NCBI GenBank assembly: GCA_965222115.1
Contig: CBDCTJ010000007.1
Span: 1,408,001 to 1,472,000, forward strand
Direction of reading: 5' to 3'
Length of the DNA: 64,000 nt
From: Planctomycetota bacterium
Lineage (GTDB): Bacteria; Planctomycetota; PLA2; JAEUHO01
The position numbers and the translations under genes are program-made. The notes under the pieces were generated by a model. It searched no databases. It was not told the DNA's origin and saw only the letters and a list, made by a program, of their open reading frames with translations. Below, in pieces: positions 3,242 through 10,795 of the stretch (positions are counted from its first letter, which is position 1; every line of letters begins with the position of its first letter).

Positions 3242-3455
3242 AAGGTCTTACAACCTATTGGGCACCCCGTCTTACTGCTTGTTTCTTGGCATTGGAATTG
3301 GCGTCGTTGGCACGCTACTGCTCACAGATTCGAAGCAGGCTACGGAATTCGACGCAGGTCGCGCGTTCTCGGGTTGAGTCAACGTCTTTGGAGAAGTTTT
3401 CGGCTGGGGGCCGAGATTTCATCCTCGACACAATCGGCGCAACACAATCAGTCAC

Positions 3456-3561
3456 CGGTCCCGAAGGGACATACGCGGATAGCCCAGGGTGCACAACGAG
3501 CGTAGCGAGTTGAAACCCTGGGACAAAACGCAACAACAATCTCAGCGCCCTGTAAGGGCGC
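3456..3561 (+). repeat. REP-like structured repeat, copy 1 (three hairpins)
   Basis: GTCCC-GAA-GGGAC (3458-3470), then GATAGC, a CCCAGGGT...ACCCTGGG stem (3483-3522), and GCGCCCT-GTA-AGGGCGC (3545-3561). Confidence 0.8.
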
Positions 3562-3594
3562 AAGCGTCTCCGCCAACCGATGCAACGTCATGAG

Positions 3595-4047
3595 TCAGTC
3601 CCAAATGTAGCGCTCGTCGTACACAACAAGATTTTGCTCAAACAGTTTCAGCAACTCTTCCTTGTACGTCCATTTGCGGTGGTGTTCTCGTTGGTGCTCA
3701 ATGTAGTCAATGACAGGTTCTTTGTGACTTGGGCTCACCGAGAAGGCGCCGTATCCATTCTGCCATCTAGAGTCGGCGAGTAGCGGTACCGAATCTCGGA
3801 TCCATCGCGTCGATCCAGTCTTGATGTTCTGAATGACCTTTGAAATGGCCTTGGTACGAGGAAGACTCAACATCAAGTGGATATGGTCATCTACGGATCC
3901 TGCAGACAGGAGTACTCCCCCAAGTCTTCGGACGATTCCTCCGATGTAGCTGTGCAGTTCACTCCGCCACGCGTCGCCTAGCAATGGCTTCCGGCCCTTT
4001 GTACTGAAGATTACATGAACCAAGATGTTGGAGAGTGATTGCGACAT
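3595..4047 (-). mobile_element. tnpA: IS200/IS605-family Y1 (HUH) transposase, REP-associated tyrosine transposase (RAYT)-like
   Basis: 150 aa with HVIFSTKGR, the HUH motif DHIHL, WQNGYGAFSVS and the catalytic YIEHQ..HH. No tnpB is adjacent, and the gene is flanked by inverted palindromic repeats. Confidence 0.92.
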
Positions 4048-4210
4048 GCACCTGCCTCAGAGTCGAACCCGTCTTGAATCTCGGCGCTCGACGTCGACGT
4101 TGCTAGATGCCGGCCCCAACACACTCTTCGCACAACTCCGTTGCAGGTAACACGTCGGGACGGATTCTTCATCCACCAGAATGGTTGGGATGCCTCTGCA
4201 AGTCGCACTA

Positions 4211-4302
4211 CCGCCCTTACAGGGCGGCGGATTATTGGGGAACCTCATACCAGGGTTCGGAAGCCTCACCCTTCGCTATCAGCTTCCATGCCTTCGGCAT
4301 GG
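4211..4302 (-). repeat. REP-like structured repeat, copy 2 (inverted relative to copy 1)
   Basis: The reverse complement reads CCATGCC-GAA-GGCATGG..GATAGC..AGGGTG..AACCCTGG..CCGCCCT-GTA-AGGGCGG, the same architecture as copy 1. Confidence 0.8.
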
Positions 4303-4519
4303 CCCTGTCTTCCATATGCCCAAGGACGAGTAACGGGTATTGGCCTAGCCCAACCACCAGGCATCCTTGGAAACGTCTCCGCGCATGTTTCCGCCGTCAA
4401 TACTACGAACGCGCCCTAGGAGCTTCATGATCTGTCCCTGCCACCTCTCTTGATCTGGGCAGAGCCACATCTTGTGTCAAGGCGTATCGTCAACACCTCC
4501 GAGTAACACAACCCTTAGA

Positions 4520-4650
4520 CGGTCCCGAAGGGACATACGTTGATAGCTCGGAGTGCCCGCGAGGAAACAGTGCGGGAGCGCAGCGAACTGAAACCCGGGG
4601 ACCTCGTGAATGAAACACAAACTGACCGCCCAGTATGGTTGGACGGGGCG
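4520..4650 (+). repeat. REP-like structured repeat, copy 3 (diverged)
   Basis: CGGTCCCGAAGGGACATACG is identical to copy 1. It is followed by GATAGC, GAGCGCAGCGA, TGAAACCCGGGGAC and a degenerate CGCCC...GGGCG terminal hairpin. Confidence 0.75.
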
Positions 4651-4770
4651 TGCGCAGGTTGAGATTCTGAATACCAGGGATCGGGCGAGGCGAAGGATTG
4701 AGATTCAGCTTCCGAAAGAGCGGGCAAGCAACAAGCGTATCGGCTAATTCAATATCGAATCAACCGCCCA

Positions 4771-6597
4771 CTACTTTAGGCGTGACAATTGTATGTCCAC
4801 AGCTGTCACTTTGTTCGGAAACACTTGAAACTCGGTGCTCGCTTGTTCGTACCCTGGCATCATGATTGCCAATAGATACTCCCCAGCCGGGCAACTTGTC
4901 AGCCACTCCCTTTGTTTGGGTGGAGTCCTCGTGTTGGATAGTGGAACTTGAATTCTTGCTGGGCCAAACTTCCCTGTGATGTTGTTCTTCAGTAGGGCCA
5001 TGAGCCGGGAACCGTAAATTCGTTGTCCACTGGCATTCTTTACTCGTACGAAGAACCCAGTGGGAGGTGGAAGCCGTACTTGATATTTGAGATTGTTCCC
5101 GGCTTCAATTTTTAGCTCTTCTCTCCTAACACCGTCTCGTACCCAAACTTTCAATTCGCGATCGGGAACACCTTTGAACGACCATTCGTTTCTTGTCTTG
5201 GAGCGCAGGCCGTCCAACAAGAATGAGAAATTGTTCTCCAGCCGAACTTCGAGGCTTAACTCGCTGGGAATCGCGACTTCTTTCGGATAATCATGCTTCA
5301 CGACTATCGAAAGTTCGCGGCGACTGAAAAAACCATGCCACGGAACTCTGACTCTCTCCCATCGAGCATCTTCATTGTGCTTCCATAGGCGCACCGTCGT
5401 GGCGATGGTGCCATACCCTGGGGAACTCACCTCGAGTTTCGCGTTTTGAGGTAAATCCGCCGAGCTGGTCCTAGATCGTCTTACGAATCCGGAGTACCTA
5501 GCTCTCCCAATTGATTGTTCACTTTTGAAGCCGTCTCGGCTTGAGCGCCACACGTCTTTCCAAAGGACGCGTTCCGTAACGAGCTCACATTTTGTTTGAC
5601 CGCCCGCCAACTTCTTCAGGCGCAAGACAGGCATCCCTGCGTCGAGTGGCTTGTTGGAATCCACCTCTTCTAATTCTAAAAAAAAAGCTCGCAATTCGTG
5701 CAGCGTAAACAGCACGTTTGCTCGACCAACTCTTACTACTTTGCTACTTAGAGACACAGTTCCACGTCCGGCATCGCCGCGGCTAGTACCGGCATATCCA
5801 GACGCACAGCAGCATAGTTGCACAGCCGATAGGTTGTTGGAAACTGATATTGAAAAGCTGCCATCGTTAAGGGTTCTCGTACTTCGCATGTTTACAGCAG
5901 CCGGTGCGGAGCCATTTCCTTCGTCGCTCCATGAACCTGAACAGCGAGTAATCAATTCTTGGCTTGCTCCAATGGGCAGGCAGCATACCTGGGCTTTTGC
6001 GATAGGCGCGCCAGAATCATCCACAACTCTGCCCGACACGGTTGCACCTAACGGGTCCATCCCAATCTCGTGGGCACCAGAATCAGAGATGACGCTTAGT
6101 ACCTCGCTTTGCATCTCCTCAATCGCGTCTTCGTACCCAGCCGATCTAACGATTAGTTTCAAGACCTCTCGTGAACTGGGGATTTGGGCGGTCCCCTTTT
6201 CGCCCGATGTTCGACGGAAAACTACATCTTCATTCTTCAGCGCAAGCAAGTTAGATGATCGCCTGAGTCCCCAGATATGCGCGTTGGAGATTGGGAGCTT
6301 CGTTTTTCGGTCAACTACCGAGACCGCGAAAGAAGTCCCTGCTTCGCTCGGCTCAGGCATATCCTCGCTTGCGTCCTGCAACGAATCTACCACGCTCCCC
6401 TCAAGTGTGCTGTTCGACGAAAGTCCTACATCGTCTCCCAAGATCGCCGTGAGGTGACTATATCGGTCGTCGGCCCGCGCTGATCTCGTAGCTGTCGTGT
6501 CTTGGATCAGCGCCAAGTACAGAAAGTAGCCCGCGCAGGCAGCCATGACTCCTACACATATGAGCAGTCGGGGCGACCGCTCAAATAGCGTTCTCAT
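4771..6597 (-). CDS. Membrane-anchored protein with several carboxypeptidase-regulatory-like (Ig/prealbumin-like) beta-sandwich domains
   Basis: ATG at 6597 overlaps the upstream stop (ATGA). There is an N-terminal TM helix, and repeated motifs VSVVDRKTKLPISNAHI, VSGRVVDDSGAPIAKAQV..DGSFSI, VRVKNASGQRI..GEYLLAIMMPGYE. Confidence 0.75.
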   Translation of the reverse strand: MRTLFERSPRLLICVGVMAACAGYFLYLALIQDTTATRSARADDRYSHLTAILGDDVGLSSNSTLEGSVVDSLQDASEDMPEPSEAGTSFAVSVVDRKTKLPISNAHIWGLRRSSNLLALKNEDVVFRRTSGEKGTAQIPSSREVLKLIVRSAGYEDAIEEMQSEVLSVISDSGAHEIGMDPLGATVSGRVVDDSGAPIAKAQVCCLPIGASQELITRCSGSWSDEGNGSAPAAVNMRSTRTLNDGSFSISVSNNLSAVQLCCCASGYAGTSRGDAGRGTVSLSSKVVRVGRANVLFTLHELRAFFLELEEVDSNKPLDAGMPVLRLKKLAGGQTKCELVTERVLWKDVWRSSRDGFKSEQSIGRARYSGFVRRSRTSSADLPQNAKLEVSSPGYGTIATTVRLWKHNEDARWERVRVPWHGFFSRRELSIVVKHDYPKEVAIPSELSLEVRLENNFSFLLDGLRSKTRNEWSFKGVPDRELKVWVRDGVRREELKIEAGNNLKYQVRLPPPTGFFVRVKNASGQRIYGSRLMALLKNNITGKFGPARIQVPLSNTRTPPKQREWLTSCPAGEYLLAIMMPGYEQASTEFQVFPNKVTAVDIQLSRLK

Positions 6598-7154
6598 TGA
6601 CACGTGCAGCCGGAATTTGAAACACCAGTCCAAATGGGGGGGTCTAGTGGCATCGGCGGGGTCCACACGATGCCGACGTCCTCGCAAGTCAAGGAGGATC
6701 CGATGCACTCGCCCTCACAGCCCTTCCAAAGCGTGTTCCCACTCTGAGGGTCACTGTATCGAACTGAATCGCACAGCCAGGGTCCGTTCCCGCCGACTTG
6801 GTCGGGATAGTGCCAACCAAAGTGAGTCCCGCTAATGAATATGGGGCAGGTACACGTCGCCCGAGTCACCACCGTGCCCGCTAGCCCTGAGGGATGTCCG
6901 GCTGGTACCGTGTATCCTGGGAAGTCCTGAAGTTGACAATCCGGAACGGACCCTCCCGGGCAGGGTCCATCGCAGTCTATGACCTGAAGAAAGTCAAAGA
7001 AAATTGGCGTCCCTCCGATAGTCAACCAGAAGCCTTCGTAGTGCAGCGTCTTGCCGCGGCACTGGCCAGATTGCGCGGACGCTATATTAAACCCACCGAG
7101 CGCAATCGAACATATCGCGACCAATAAGGGAGCAATTCCTATCCAAAACCTCAT
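6594..7154 (-). CDS. Secreted cysteine-rich protein with two tandem 6-Cys (cystine-knot-like) modules
   Basis: AGGAGGA RBS at 7162-7168, a signal peptide with an ASA|Q cleavage site, and 12 Cys in the mature part arranged as 2 x C-CxGxC-C-CTC. Confidence 0.85.
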   Translation of the reverse strand: MRFWIGIAPLLVAICSIALGGFNIASAQSGQCRGKTLHYEGFWLTIGGTPIFFDFLQVIDCDGPCPGGSVPDCQLQDFPGYTVPAGHPSGLAGTVVTRATCTCPIFISGTHFGWHYPDQVGGNGPWLCDSVRYSDPQSGNTLWKGCEGECIGSSLTCEDVGIVWTPPMPLDPPIWTGVSNSGCTCQ

Positions 7155-7175
7155 TCGTGTATCCTCCTGCTAGAT

Positions 7176-7535
7176 TTATGCCCTAGACTGACTAGACGCA
7201 CGCCAAATTTCGAGACTCGTGATAACTACTAGGCCGCTCACTACCATCGCTATCCCATCTGACATCTTAGCCGCCCCAAGGCAGCCACATTGACCGACAG
7301 GTCGCGGGTGCAGGAGTCGTGCGAAGGCTGCGCCAGCGTATGCGAAAGCCAGCACAAAGGCAGTGGGCCTTGCAGTAATCGGTACGGCAATTCCGACGGC
7401 GCACAACAGCTCAAGTAAGGCGACTTCCGTGTTTGGTCCCTGGCGATCGGGAGATGATCCGTCCCCTGAGAGCTTTTCATAGACTGCCCACACTAAGAAC
7501 AGGACTAAGGACCAACGCAGGGCGTGCCAGTACAT
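7176..7535 (-). CDS. MauE/DoxX-family redox-associated membrane protein
   Basis: GAGGAG RBS precedes ATG 7535. The protein has ~4 hydrophobic segments, an ELL..G motif and the MauE-type CGCLG motif. Confidence 0.72.
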   Translation of the reverse strand: MYWHALRWSLVLFLVWAVYEKLSGDGSSPDRQGPNTEVALLELLCAVGIAVPITARPTAFVLAFAYAGAAFARLLHPRPVGQCGCLGAAKMSDGIAMVVSGLVVITSLEIWRASSQSRA

Positions 7536-7795
7536 TTGAGACTCCTCACTCCTCAACCCTATACGAGCCTTTGGGACGAAGCGCCGAAAAGCTGAGAGAA
7601 ATCCACACGGATCTAAATTTATGTTTTGAACCCGCTCCATAGGCCGATGTGACTAGGCAAGATCACTTGAGATATCTAGCACTGAGCCTGGACATAACAC
7701 TACATCCGTGAATCTAGGCCCTTGCCACTCACCGCGGAGTCCACATTGGCGCAAAAGGTCGCGCTGCTTAGGTTGAGGCGCCTACGTTCTTGTGC

Positions 7796-8191
7796 TCAAT
7801 TCAAAATCGAATCATCCGCCCACTCCGGCGTCCACACGATTTCGCACGGTTGCAGCGTGTCAAACTCGTCCCACGAGAGATTGAACGTGAAGATCCAGTC
7901 GGCGACATCCAGGCGAATGTCGAGATCGAGCACGAACGAGTCTAACTTGCGATACGTGGACGTGCGGGCGCGCCGGAGTTTGCGAATCAGCTTGCGCATA
8001 TCGGGGTCTTCGCCTGGGACCGCAGCCGTTCCGAGTTTGCCGTTGCCGCAATTCCAAATGAACTCGGCGACTTGGAGATTGGTCTCCTTGTCCCACTTGA
8101 GGAAGCCGGGTTCAAAGGCAATGAGCGTGAATTGCACGACTGCATTGGCCTCCTTGAGAACAACGTCCTCGGGCTTGATGAACTTCTTCAT
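7796..8191 (-). CDS. Hypothetical protein (131 aa, soluble, acidic C-terminus)
   Basis: Composition is protein-like from MKKFIKPEDVV, and a purine-rich AGAAGGGG lies upstream. The longer ORF-track start would overlap the next gene. Confidence 0.65.
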   Translation of the reverse strand: MKKFIKPEDVVLKEANAVVQFTLIAFEPGFLKWDKETNLQVAEFIWNCGNGKLGTAAVPGEDPDMRKLIRKLRRARTSTYRKLDSFVLDLDIRLDVADWIFTFNLSWDEFDTLQPCEIVWTPEWADDSILN

Positions 8192-8261
8192 ACCCCTTCT
8201 ACGCACGAGTGCGCGAAAGGTAACATATCGCCACAAAGCCCGGGCGCATCTCCGAAGACGG

Positions 8262-10706
8262 CTACTTGGCCACCCCCGGCACAAGTCCACCGAAAACCGC
8301 GCTCGGCACCCAATGCGTGGCTTCGTCGTAGGCGCGCATGGCCTTCGTACTGGGAGGCAACAGTTCAAATTTGATCCAGCGCCGCATGCCGCGGAGGAGG
8401 TCATAGCATGATTTATTGAGCGCCGCATTGCTGTCGAGTTGCGTAATGATGAGGTCGTAAATGCCATCAATGCCTCGCAACCAATGCGGCCGGCTCGTTG
8501 CGCGAGGTTCGAATGGGGCCAAACGTGCCATGATCGATCCGTTTCCTGAAGAGAGTAGCTGCGACACATCGTTGCGAGCATCAGATTGCGTCCGAGCGAG
8601 GCCTGCCGTCGCGAACCAATACCACAGGCCCTCTCGCCGCTGTGCGCGCGATTGCTCGAGATACGTCGTAATGCGCGGATCGTTTACAGCGCCCAGTCGT
8701 GCAAGCCCGGCGTAACTGCGGTCTGCCAACACCATGGCGGCGGAGACAGTATCGCCCGCACGAAAGTGTTTCCATGCCGCGCGCGAGTCCTTTCGCTCCT
8801 GAATGTGGCGCTCACCCTCTTCGGCCTCGAAGGTCGCGTCTGCGTTGTGCCACAAGAACTCAAGCTCATTCGCCCCGGTAGCGCGAACTACAAGCGCTGT
8901 CAATGCGTCGATCGATCTGGCTTCATCATCGTGATAATGGACACCCTTTATTTCAGGGTCGGGGGCGAGCCTACGGAGTTCTGCGTCGATCGTCTTGTTC
9001 TGTACGTACGTAAGTGATCGACGATGTCGAGACTTCCAGTAGACCGAGCCCTCACCGCGAAACGCCTTGAGCATGACATCTTCATGTCCGGTCACGCCCA
9101 GGCGTGCCAATGCCGCAAGAAGCGAGGGCTTGATCCCTGGCTGCGATTCTAAAAGTGTCGTAATGAGTGCAATCGTTGCGTCGCGATCCCGCACTTCAAG
9201 CAGCGATAGCAATCGGAGCCAATGAACTTCATCGCCGCGGCTCTGTTTCAAGTCAGGTAAGCTTGAGAGTCGCTTTGCAAGTCGTTTGGCACGCTCACGC
9301 GAAAGACTCTCGGGATCCGCATTCACGTGCCACTCAGCGAGTTTACGAATGTGCGTCGTCGATTCGGGGTCCATCGTGTTCCACAGCGCGTCGCTCAACA
9401 TTCGTAGATGATTCGGTGTGATGTTTACGCCAAACATGCGGCGCATAAGTTCTCGCATGCCGGGTGTGAACTGCACAGACGCACGCGATCGCCGATCCAT
9501 CGGCCCATTCAAGATTCGTTTCGCGGCTCGCGTGGCCGATTCCTTGGGCAATGCACGCCACGACATGAGTTCTACAAACGCATTGACGCGAGCCGATCGG
9601 CTGGCATCTTGCTTCTGGTGGCGCTCTAGACGCTCGCGATAGACCTCGGGCTTTCCCAGCAACGCAAGTGCGGTTGCCGCGCACCAACTGCGTTCGTCGC
9701 GGTTCTTTGTCAGCGCCAACACTTGTTCGGCGTCTTCTTTGGAAAGCCTCGCACGATGTCGCATGCTCCATGTGCCGAGGTTCACGATGTGAGAGGCAAA
9801 CGCTCGCGTCGGCGCGTCAAACGCGTCAACGAATGTCCTGAGAAATGGAAGGTCCTTTTCTGCCGGTTGATAACGCATGAGCGCGAGTTGAATCCACGAC
9901 TTTGGCGCAGACACACTCAATGGCTTGTTCTTTGGATCGCCGATATCGAATCCCCGTTTGCGGTCATTCAACGAACGAAAGAGCTCCAGGATCCCCTCCG
10001 GGAGGCCACCGTCGCTGGGCACTTGGGTTCGCGGCGAGACCGAGGCGAGTGTGGGCGGCTTCGTGTTGGCACGTTCCGCACGCAAGCGCTCCAATCCGTA
10101 TAGCAGTCCCACGAGAATCGCATCTTGATGTTTGAACTCGGAGTCGAACTCGCAAACGTCAATGAATGCGTCGAGCAACTGTTCAAACATAGGTGTGGGG
10201 CTTGACGCCAATAGCGGGAGAAGTCCGGCAAGCTGGCGTGGCGTGAGGCAGCTTCGTACTCGCTTGTAGTCGATTCGTTCGCGCTGTTTTTCCGTGGCGG
10301 TAGCGGCTAGCTTAAGGTGTGAAGGAATGTCTTCGGACCGCAACGTGCCATTGGACTTGTCTATGGCCCACCAAGGCGCACGGGAGATAGCCTCCAGCGA
10401 ACCACTGAGCAGTTTCCGCTTGCGCGCCATTCCCTCGGTGTCGAGATTCGGGAAGTCCAGTCCCCGCGCCGCTTGTCTCGCTAGTTTGAGATCCTCGCCC
10501 TCGAAGGCGGCGCGCAGCACGTTTCGCTTGTGGCTTGCGTAAGTCTCTCGGCTACGCCACCACTGGCGAACTTCTTTGTGTTTGGCATGCGCTTCGTCGA
10601 GTAGCGCGCGAAACGTGTCGAGTTCACCTTTGGCGCTGGCCGTGTGAGGCGGCGCCAACAACAGGAGGACAGAAATTAGACCCATTCGCGCAAGGGAGAT
10701 ACGCAT
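8262..10706 (-). CDS. Large exported alpha-helical (HEAT/ARM-like) hypothetical protein
   Basis: >800-aa ORF with a signal peptide (..LLLLAPPHTASA|K) and HEAT-like segments such as CAATALALLG and LLAALARLG. The start is uncertain. Confidence 0.65.
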   Translation of the reverse strand: MRISLARMGLISVLLLLAPPHTASAKGELDTFRALLDEAHAKHKEVRQWWRSRETYASHKRNVLRAAFEGEDLKLARQAARGLDFPNLDTEGMARKRKLLSGSLEAISRAPWWAIDKSNGTLRSEDIPSHLKLAATATEKQRERIDYKRVRSCLTPRQLAGLLPLLASSPTPMFEQLLDAFIDVCEFDSEFKHQDAILVGLLYGLERLRAERANTKPPTLASVSPRTQVPSDGGLPEGILELFRSLNDRKRGFDIGDPKNKPLSVSAPKSWIQLALMRYQPAEKDLPFLRTFVDAFDAPTRAFASHIVNLGTWSMRHRARLSKEDAEQVLALTKNRDERSWCAATALALLGKPEVYRERLERHQKQDASRSARVNAFVELMSWRALPKESATRAAKRILNGPMDRRSRASVQFTPGMRELMRRMFGVNITPNHLRMLSDALWNTMDPESTTHIRKLAEWHVNADPESLSRERAKRLAKRLSSLPDLKQSRGDEVHWLRLLSLLEVRDRDATIALITTLLESQPGIKPSLLAALARLGVTGHEDVMLKAFRGEGSVYWKSRHRRSLTYVQNKTIDAELRRLAPDPEIKGVHYHDDEARSIDALTALVVRATGANELEFLWHNADATFEAEEGERHIQERKDSRAAWKHFRAGDTVSAAMVLADRSYAGLARLGAVNDPRITTYLEQSRAQRREGLWYWFATAGLARTQSDARNDVSQLLSSGNGSIMARLAPFEPRATSRPHWLRGIDGIYDLIITQLDSNAALNKSCYDLLRGMRRWIKFELLPPSTKAMRAYDEATHWVPSAVFGGLVPGVAK

Positions 10707-10795
10707 CAGCAAGCTCCGCAATTCAATTGGCCAACGGCGTAGCATACTCGCCCAAGGTGGTGGGAATAAACGCGGCGCGGTATGGTCGCGTCGCG

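Follow-up and report, generated by a model that had tools for sequence, protein, structure and literature searches.

A recurrent three-gene cassette encoding a MauE-like membrane protein, a cysteine-rich secreted protein and a membrane anchor in Planctomycetota

In a stretch of DNA of 64,000 nucleotides from a Planctomycetota bacterium (the whole stretch analysed, hereafter the window, in which positions are counted from the first letter), three neighbouring genes encode a small membrane protein resembling MauE, a cysteine-rich secreted protein and a larger membrane-anchored protein. Do these genes form a functional unit and, if so, what is it that they make together?

The three genes and their products

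The ORF check of the window placed the three genes on the minus strand, co-oriented, in the order MauE-like (M), Cys-rich (C) and anchor (A). The tight packing described in the original prediction was borne out by the coordinates: 21 nt separate genes 1 and 2, and genes 2 and 3 overlap by an ATGA. The strong ribosome-binding sites attributed to the first two genes were also there, GAGGAG before the ATG of gene 1 and AGGAGG 7 nt upstream of the ATG of gene 2. The 262 nt upstream of gene 1 (7536..7797, minus strand) were classed as a non-coding leader from their position only; they belong to the insert described below, and the scan of positions 4400-8300 revealed neither the consensus of a sigma-70-type promoter nor that of an intrinsic terminator.

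Gene 1 (7176..7535, minus strand) encodes 119 amino acids counted from the ATG behind the GAGGAG motif. A longer start (a 154-aa ORF from 7640) would add no further hydrophobic segment. The hydropathy profile contains four hydrophobic helices, with a CGC motif between helices 3 and 4. The match to the MauE profile (Pfam PF07291) claimed for this protein held for its family, all 11 cassette MauE homologues matching at E≤0.01 (best 4.1e-10), but gene 1 itself remained below the 27-bit cut-off (24.1 bits, E 5e-5, profile positions 52-121 of 128). Scores were higher for the cassette MauE of genome G025 (28.1 bits, positions 6-126) and for another copy from the same genome as the window, at C7:0.23 Mb (53.5 bits). 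K21, E42, C83, C85 and G87 were invariant in the alignment of the 11 homologues, and equivalents of K21 and E42 were also found in a protein in which MauE is fused to the anchor (see below). The residue after the CXC is leucine in gene 1 and in 8 of the 11 proteins overall; phenylalanine, isoleucine and valine occur once each. On the strength of these motifs, we treat the gene 1 product as a compact, divergent member of the MauE family and a putative membrane thiol oxidase.

According to a 2026 preprint, two proteins of the MauE family can stand in for DsbB of E. coli and require the CXC motif to do so; the features given there are an active-site CXC lying in the loop that joins helices 3 and 4, a conserved lysine and glutamate on helices 1 and 2, proposed as the quinone site, and a Phe-Gly directly after the CXC, which is presented as highly conserved and not as shown to be essential (10.64898/2026.03.05.709764). 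Because the MauE proteins of that preprint replace DsbB by way of the CXC, the role of dedicated oxidative-folding factor originally proposed for the gene 1 product is mechanistically plausible, and the gene is linked to the Cys-rich gene across genomes, though the oxidation of this particular client is something we infer. Eleven MauE/DoxX matches were present in the genome, and no DsbB, VKOR or DsbA was recognisable in the genome searches; eight Redoxin-type genes were found elsewhere in the genome, none of them beside a cassette. The reported absence of mauA and mauB agreed with the data from this 90%-complete genome: mauA (PF02975) gave no match, a weak blank in that the PF02975 control was positive in 0 of 14 control genomes, and the best score for mauB (PF06433) was 17.3 bits, below the 21-bit cut-off and in a distant place.

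Gene 2 (6594..7154, minus strand) encodes a protein of 186 amino acids with a single N-terminal hydrophobic segment (residues 1-27), of the Sec signal-peptide type, followed by 12 cysteines in about 159 residues and ending in C-x-C-Q. Nine cysteine columns were invariant in the 13 aligned members of the family and three more were conserved in at least 90% of them; outside this cysteine frame, identity was 19-29%. Two C-x-C motifs and two closely spaced cysteine pairs were conserved, a C-x-G-x-C motif was also present, and the alignment contained no conserved histidine, methionine or aspartate ligand column. The protein had no Pfam or NCBIfam match, and none of the 10 members compared with Pfam at E≤1 matched a family, YTV included (one chance match, 0.46, to an unrelated model). 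In large protein collections it retrieved only itself and cassette homologues, and in single-sequence searches only itself; a 2827-aa repetitive protein matched in a library of 1.84 billion representatives was judged spurious. A two-row profile gave nothing new in 401 genomes of the phylum, and scans of genome and metagenome contigs returned only the G025 organism. The Cys-rich profile matched 10 of the 401 genomes, and the single-protein search matched 1 of 60 relatives. From its sequence, therefore, the gene 2 product appears as the founder of an unannotated family of predicted secreted 12-Cys proteins.

The description of this protein as cystine-knot-like had to be set aside, no fold being obtained: AlphaFold2 reached a pLDDT of 32 with a 2-row alignment and of 50 with a 10-row alignment, both too poor. 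The ESM Atlas yielded no usable match, the profile search of the PDB one chance match only (E 0.22), and PADLOC no match among 8 proteins.

Gene 3 (4771..6597, minus strand) encodes a bitopic protein of 608 amino acids, with a single N-terminal hydrophobic segment serving as the putative anchor helix (residues 9-32), an acidic linker and then beta-sandwich domains of the CarboxypepD_reg and PEGA types. CarboxypepD_reg (PF13620) was matched in two stretches (E 1.5e-15, 57.7 bits, cut-off 32.3) and PEGA at 25.6 bits (cut-off 20.8). These families take the place of the Ig repeats first read into the protein, for which Pfam offered no Ig family match. The protein aligned end to end with its cassette homologues, and CarboxypepD_reg was found in 8 of the 12 cassette anchors scanned. 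The anchor profile also matched about 60 other ORFs in the same genome; the domain type is therefore common, and part of the similarity among anchors is generic. The CC and CCC groups to which attention had been drawn were not conserved in the G025 homologue, nor was any cysteine column kept among 9 or 12 aligned anchors, so the anchor cannot be a redox relay. The prediction of a complex between the mature Cys-rich protein and the ectodomain of the anchor gave a score of 0.00, which is evidence neither way.

Recurrence and probable insertion of the cassette

The same three families stood together at many other loci, so the arrangement goes beyond chance. Five complete trio loci, with shuffled gene order, were present in the genome itself: M-C-A in the window, C-A-M at C7:2.976 Mb, C-M-A at C7:0.23 Mb, C followed by an M::A fusion at C7:2.82 Mb, and C-A-A-M on C4; a partial locus was found on C1. 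Beyond this genome, the trio was found in at least eight more genomes of Planctomycetota, belonging to several families, as C-M-A (G025, G293), C-A-M (G020, G005, G141, G225), M-C-A (G297) or C-A-A-M (G064). Overall, there were at least 13 full trios, adjacent and co-oriented, in four gene orders. A failure of the three families to co-occur in other genomes had been named beforehand as a result that would speak against a unit; they co-occurred.

Fourteen MauE-like loci were extended; the profile used to pick them had been made from MauE proteins of cassettes, a choice biased towards cassettes. Seven of these loci contained the full trio, two contained variants and five nothing of the kind. At two loci reached by the Cys-rich profile alone (G009 and G018), the anchor gene directly adjoined the Cys-rich gene. 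No MauE-like gene lay within about 1.5 kb of the pair in G009, and MauE is thus not obligatory in cis.

The fusion protein (729 aa) begins with a MauE part (Pfam E 0.001, cassette profile E 2e-5), continues with a fifth helix and ends with the anchor ectodomain (profile E 8e-22; CarboxypepD_reg E 8e-9). That gene 3 belongs with the other two, as originally proposed, was supported by its constant partnership and by this paralogue fused to MauE. The trio is a real module.

In the window, the cassette is bracketed by a 27-nt direct repeat. One copy (4746..4772) starts within the stop codon of gene 3 and is identical at 25 of 27 positions to the other (7798..7824), which forms the last codons of a 131-aa gene (7796-8191). 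The repeat search found only these two copies in the 4.55-Mb genome, and none of the reversed control pattern. The insert of about 3 kb contains no integrase, and an IS200-type transposase lies 0.7 kb away. Both belong to a lower-GC island (3242..10741), recognised from the relatives and from its GC content, between a dppA-like binding-protein gene and a dppB-like permease gene; the island comprises the IS200-type transposase, the cassette, the 131-aa gene and a gene for an 827-aa secreted protein. The two flanking transporter genes abut in all 11 family relatives examined, in which the operon interrupted here by the island is intact. A truncation of the upstream binding-protein gene by the island was considered and rejected, since the homologues of this gene in relatives can be aligned with it as far as its end; the island insertion stands.

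The GC content was 55.2% in the island and 53.4% in the cassette, compared with 58.7% in the genome, and ranged from 52.6 to 55.8% in the six loci of this genome (five complete plus the partial one on C1). Of the seven loci that were inspected, four had transposase genes alongside them, of the types IS200 (window), IS110 (C7:2.976 Mb), IS3 (C1) and IS66 (G025, on either side). The cassette appears to be an insertion and to move as a unit. No comparable bracketing repeats turned up around four other cassettes. Homologues of the 131-aa gene were found in 5 of 60 relatives, none adjoining a cassette gene, and no true empty site was recovered among those relatives; contigs covering the cassette in four runs of one study, in which rare forms are dropped by assembly into contigs, contained no joint that skips it. 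Neither the probable insertion marked by the 27-nt repeat nor the paralogous cassettes had been noticed in the original prediction.

Proposed function and alternatives

We consider it rather probable that the three genes form a self-contained module, horizontally mobile, with which a disulfide-rich secreted protein is made, that is, a private oxidative-folding cassette for a diversifying client. Family membership, motifs, linkage, one fusion, the insertion signature and the expansion of paralogues form the observed basis of this explanation. The gene 2 product would be exported by Sec, its 12 cysteines being sufficient for six disulfides. The gene 1 product would act like DsbB, the periplasmic CGC loop taking electrons from thiols and handing them to a membrane quinone held by the lysine of helix 1 and the glutamate of helix 2. 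The gene 3 product would be tethered in the same membrane, with its beta-sandwich chain reaching into the periplasm, and may hold or dock the Cys-rich protein beside the oxidase, as suggested by its staying with the Cys-rich protein in every locus. DsbB-like enzymes normally work through a thioredoxin-fold carrier, and the cassette contains no gene for one; MauE may oxidise the Cys-rich client directly or through a carrier encoded elsewhere. As to the purpose of the Cys-rich proteins, the variable loops on a fixed cysteine frame, the several divergent copies and the mobile-element neighbours lead us to guess at a role in interactions with other cells.

A more far-reaching version, which we think somewhat improbable, is that planctomycetes possess a mobile, diversifying arsenal of six-disulfide mini-proteins, bacterial counterparts of the defensins or cysteine-rich effectors of eukaryotes in contests between cells, each with its own MauE and a membrane scaffold that would present the unfolded chain directly to the enzyme. 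If this were true, MauE would be the first DsbB-type oxidase to act on a client without a thioredoxin-fold go-between, and this in a genome in which the searches found no DsbA, DsbB or VKOR.

Among the alternatives, the one that survives best, although we think it somewhat improbable, is a bacteriocin-like toxin, in which the Cys-rich protein would harm competitors, the anchor would be a periplasmic immunity protein and MauE a maturation factor only. A toxin would be consistent with loops that vary around an unchanging set of cysteines, with the presence of five complete, divergent copies in a single genome, with a mobile context and with a patchy distribution (Cys-rich profile in 10 of the 401 phylum genomes), and private DoxX/MauE-type oxidases described in peptide clusters provide a precedent (PMC7168211; PMC7794033). 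However, the cassette has no outer-membrane exporter, lysis gene or peptidase, an immunity protein of 600 amino acids would be unusually large, neither PADLOC nor the toxin families of Pfam and NCBIfam gave a match, and the MauE::anchor fusion is more in keeping with a folding scaffold than with immunity. The toxin reading refines the end function of the oxidative-folding module rather than replacing it.

An envelope building block appears unlikely. The Cys-rich protein would then be a disulfide-cross-linked component, comparable to the Cys-rich YTV-domain proteins reported in planctomycete cell-wall preparations (PMC8567305), tethered to the inner membrane by the anchor, whose long beta-sandwich chain could span the periplasm and which has a large family of similar anchored proteins in the genome. 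A core wall component should nevertheless be widespread, whereas this protein was found in 10 of 401 phylum genomes and, by the single-protein search, in 1 of 60 relatives; the 10 members scanned gave no YTV or other Pfam match at E≤1, and the lower GC content and insertion signatures are those of accessory DNA.

Still less can be said for a redox or metal carrier, a very unlikely reading in which the C-x-C and C-x-G-x-C motifs would shuttle electrons or bind copper or zinc while MauE sets the redox state. It would account for the two conserved C-x-C motifs and two closely spaced cysteine pairs, C-x-C being the redox-active motif of MauE too, but the nearly free sequence between the cysteines (19-29% identity) suits structural disulfides better than a tuned site, no histidine, methionine or aspartate ligand column is conserved, and a housekeeping role would not readily explain why a genome should have several divergent copies. 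Finally, a fortuitous adjacency of three independent genes, conceivable from the abundance of MauE and CarboxypepD_reg in the genome (11 and about 60 matches), is contradicted by the comparative data, with at least 13 full trios, adjacent and co-oriented, in four orders and several families, and one fusion, and can hardly be maintained.

Relation to known systems

A literature search of sources outside subscription journals found no published description of the trio. The kind of arrangement is known (mauE-mauA; DoxX in lasso-peptide clusters) and the three-gene variant seems unpublished. That MauE is a general disulfide-forming enzyme was shown only very recently, and the private oxidative-folding cassette proposed here would represent the opposite use, private copies for a single client family. 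The cassette makes three points directly testable: the way in which a DsbB-like oxidase comes to serve one particular client, any dependence of MauE on a thioredoxin-fold carrier, and the contribution of the ever-present beta-sandwich anchor. The 12-Cys family, with its very variable surfaces, provides candidates for new proteins with antimicrobial or adhesive activity and for compact scaffolds rich in disulfides, and the three-gene unit, with its clean insertion signature, extends the short list of mobile cargo known in Planctomycetota.

The nearest comparison is with the mau clusters, in which the gene for a four-helix protein of the MauE family likewise stands beside that for a small, cysteine-dense exported protein dependent on many disulfides. 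MauA has six of them. Unlike the mau clusters, the cassette has no MauD-type thioredoxin, its Cys-rich protein matches neither PF02975 nor another Pfam family, the third place is taken by a beta-sandwich anchor, and the unit is multi-copy and apparently mobile; the genome searches gave no mauA match and mauB below threshold only. MauE matures methylamine dehydrogenase's small subunit, as cited in the preprint (10.64898/2026.03.05.709764). The MauE proteins of that preprint share with those of the cassette the CXC, the lysine of helix 1, the glutamate of helix 2 and the glycine two residues after the CXC, all invariant in the cassette proteins, but as presented there they have a highly conserved phenylalanine after the CXC, where the cassette proteins mostly have leucine, and are generalists working probably via DsbA or MauD, whereas the cassette has divergent copies wired to one client family and no carrier gene (10.64898/2026.03.05.709764).

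A private DoxX/MauE-superfamily oxidoreductase for a disulfide-bearing secreted product is also described in class I lasso-peptide clusters (the DoxX/thioredoxin pair HumE/HumF of humidimycin; PMC7168211), and a private membrane oxidoreductase in a small cluster in the mauE-containing candidate RiPP families of Streptomyces (PMC7794033). The products of those clusters are short, leader-dependent peptides accompanied by lasso cyclase, protease and ABC exporter genes. The cassette, in contrast, encodes a Sec-exported product of 100-160 residues, and its neighbours include no cyclase, leader protease or ABC exporter.

In Bacillus subtilis, the sublancin operon combines bdbB/bdbA, which include a dedicated DsbB-type oxidase, with a secreted antimicrobial that contains disulfides, the operon being carried by a mobile element. 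The oxidase there is a DsbB and not a MauE, and the two systems differ further in organism, product and partner genes.

Composition of the cassette and conserved features of its products

Three open reading frames followed one another head-to-tail on the minus strand: a MauE-like gene (gene 1, 119 aa, 7176-7535), a cysteine-rich gene (gene 2, 186 aa, 6594-7154) and an anchor gene (gene 3, 608 aa, 4771-6597). The tight packing described in the original prediction was borne out, with genes 1 and 2 separated by 21 nt and genes 2 and 3 sharing an ATGA, as were the ribosome-binding motifs claimed for the first two genes, both of which were preceded by purine-rich motifs. The gene 1 product was hydrophobic over most of its length; hydropathy placed one hydrophobic segment at the N-terminus of the gene 2 product, ahead of its 12 cysteines, and one helix at the N-terminus of the gene 3 product. 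In Pfam, gene 1 matched MauE weakly (E 5e-5, 24.1 bits, below the 27-bit cut-off) and only over the second half of the profile, gene 2 had zero matches, and gene 3 matched CarboxypepD_reg (57.7 bits) and PEGA. None of the three matched NCBIfam.

All 11 aligned cassette MauE-like proteins matched PF07291, and Lys21, Glu42, Cys83, Cys85 and Gly87 (window numbering) were invariant among them. According to a preprint on MauE as a DsbB-like oxidase (bioRxiv 10.64898/2026.03.05.709764), two MauE proteins substitute for DsbB in E. coli, neither cysteine of the CXC motif that lies between helices 3 and 4 is dispensable, and a Lys (helix 1), a Glu (helix 2) and a Phe-Gly after the CXC are conserved near a predicted ubiquinone site. 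The conserved features reported there were all kept in the cassette proteins except the Phe, whose position was occupied by Leu in 8 of the 11. The Cys-rich family (13 members, 19-29% overall identity) had 9 invariant cysteine columns, a further 3 retained by at least 90% of members, and C-termini ending in C-x-C plus one to three residues; no Pfam family was matched by any of the 10 members scanned, and sequence comparison with solved structures gave no match. CarboxypepD_reg was matched by 8 of the 12 anchors scanned. The CC and CCC pairs noted earlier in gene 3 were missing from its homologue in a related genome (G025), and the anchor alignments contained not one conserved cysteine column.

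Linkage of the three families in other genomes

By single-sequence search the Cys-rich protein was nearly an orphan: a word-indexed protein collection returned no match besides itself, and an exhaustive search of a 1.84-billion representative library returned itself and one 2827-aa repetitive protein, judged spurious. Among 60 relatives there was one credible match (G025, E 3.5e-6), at a locus with a complete trio (Cys-rich, MauE and anchor genes, in that order), the MauE and anchor genes overlapping by 4 nt and IS66 transposase genes lying on either side; pairwise comparison with the window proteins gave low yet consistent similarity for each of the three.

A MauE-like profile derived from three cassette proteins found matches in 34 of the 401 genomes taken to sample the phylum, and 14 of the 30 loci returned were extended. 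These neighbourhoods bore out the predicted co-occurrence of the three genes elsewhere: seven held the full trio (genomes G297, G293, G005, G064, G141, G225 and G020), two held variants and five had no trio-like arrangement. One variant (G361) combined the MauE-like gene with another Cys-bearing protein and a 956-aa CarboxypepD_reg anchor. In the other (G032:C129, local coordinates L088:5918-9335), MauE was accompanied by a dissimilar secreted protein with 9 cysteines, by an anchored protein that matched thioredoxin faintly and by an AhpC/Redoxin-type protein of 418 aa; this locus was nearer than the trio to the classical MauE/MauD pairing. One in-frame TGA was observed within the MauE-like gene of the G020 cassette (G020:C5:206372-206656; local coordinates L095:8445-8816).

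A Cys-rich profile (13 rows) gave matches in at least 10 of the 401 genomes, a lower bound because two genomes contributing profile proteins were not returned. Two credible loci were new (G009 and G018), both with the anchor gene directly adjoining the Cys-rich gene; no MauE was present in the ~1.5 kb around the G009 pair. Taking these two together with the extended loci and those of the source genome, the Cys-rich and anchor genes were inseparable at the loci seen, with MauE mostly joining them. The occurrence of four gene orders and a fusion favours selection on the linkage itself over inherited synteny.

Further cassettes in the source genome and insertion of the window cassette

An anchor-profile scan of the source genome located a second trio (contig C7, 2.976 Mb), arranged Cys-rich, anchor, MauE and adjoining an IS110 transposase, and whole-genome profile searches located three further loci. 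That at C7:0.23 Mb had the order Cys-rich, MauE, anchor; a tandemly repeated 13-nt unit lay just upstream of its Cys-rich gene (L120:9493-9544). That on C4 comprised four genes (Cys-rich, two shorter anchored proteins, MauE); this small contig (28.7 kb, 55.4% GC) also carried a ParA-like ATPase gene and is possibly a plasmid or otherwise mobile. At C7:2.82 Mb the Cys-rich gene was followed by a gene for one 729-aa fusion protein (C7:2818251-2820440; L121:7252-9441). In this single chain a MauE domain was joined with a fifth helix and the ectodomain of the anchor; the protein matched the MauE and anchor profiles alike and retained the Lys, Glu and CGC. An 18-nt tandem duplication lay within its gene (L121:9236-9271). 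In the adjacent Cys-rich gene (C7:~2820560-2820990, L121) the reading frame seemed to shift by 1 nt within an A-run close behind an ATG that had a strong ribosome-binding motif; an error of assembly, a pseudogene or phase switching could each account for this. A sixth locus (C1) lacked the Cys-rich gene; half of a MauE gene, together with an anchor gene, lay directly behind an IS3 transposase.

The window cassette was bounded by a 27-nt direct repeat (4746-4772 and 7798-7824, 25/27 identical) occurring nowhere else in the 4.55 Mb genome. The first copy started inside the gene 3 stop codon and the second supplied the final codons of a 131-aa gene (7796-8191); the interval between them therefore contained exactly the three genes and a leader of 262 nt. 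A wider, lower-GC stretch of ~7.5 kb (3242-10741) lay between a dppA-like binding-protein gene and its permease genes, which are directly adjacent in 11 of 11 same-family relatives. GC content was 53.4% in the window cassette and 52.6-55.8% in the others of this genome, against 58.7% genome-wide. No integrase was found within the insert; a transposase gene of the IS200 type lay 0.7 kb off. No cassette-less form was seen in contigs from four runs of one study, which cover the cassette and leave room for rare forms.

On each side of the IS200-type Y1 transposase gene (3595-4047, minus strand) lay one copy of a 59-nt direct repeat (3434-3492 and 4498-4556, 76% identical) and one perfect 15-nt hairpin sequence (3546-3560 and 4212-4226). 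Contigs of the four runs broke at a short multi-copy element (~4248-4302), where 34-nt contigs reached depth 22 vs ~5 in the surroundings. The 131-aa gene, whose homologues in 5 of 60 relatives stood in different contexts, lay downstream of a gene (8262-10745) whose 827-aa product had a signal peptide, a helical-repeat look and no Pfam match.

Relation to known systems, proposed mechanism and redox background

The general kind, a MauE/DoxX-type oxidase gene next to the gene for its cysteine-rich exported client, is already known: examples are mauE with mauA, HumE/HumF of a lasso-peptide cluster (PMC7168211) and three mauE-bearing candidate RiPP families of Streptomyces (PMC7794033). The trio differed from these in its client, an unannotated 12-Cys protein family, in its constant beta-sandwich anchor, in having no thioredoxin partner and in being mobile and multi-copy. 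No published account of the trio was found in the literature outside subscription journals.

DsbB-type enzymes oxidise periplasmic thiols, passing electrons to quinone. The preprint extends this role to MauE (10.64898/2026.03.05.709764). Beyond the family membership, motifs, linkage, fusion and insertion observed here, we propose that the 12-Cys protein would be exported by Sec, that its private MauE would oxidise it, directly or via a carrier encoded elsewhere, and that the anchor would hold or dock it. The anchor ectodomain and CGC loop of the fusion protein would share the same side of the membrane, since four MauE helices plus the fifth would bring the chain to the periplasm. The variability of the loops, the several copies within a genome and the mobile neighbourhoods tentatively suggest that the folded protein may act in dealings with other cells.

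No DsbB, VKOR or DsbA-type families (PF02600, PF07884, PF01323, PF13462) were found in the source genome (90% complete), in searches whose controls gave matches in well-known genomes. In the same genome mauA was not found, by a profile (PF02975) that likewise gave no match in 14 control genomes, and mauB was represented by just one sub-threshold mauB-like stretch. There were 11 MauE/DoxX matches (five above cut-off) and eight Redoxin-type thioredoxin-fold genes, none of the latter adjoining a cassette. Some 60 ORFs of this genome matched the membrane-anchored CarboxypepD_reg profile, forming a large paralogous family.
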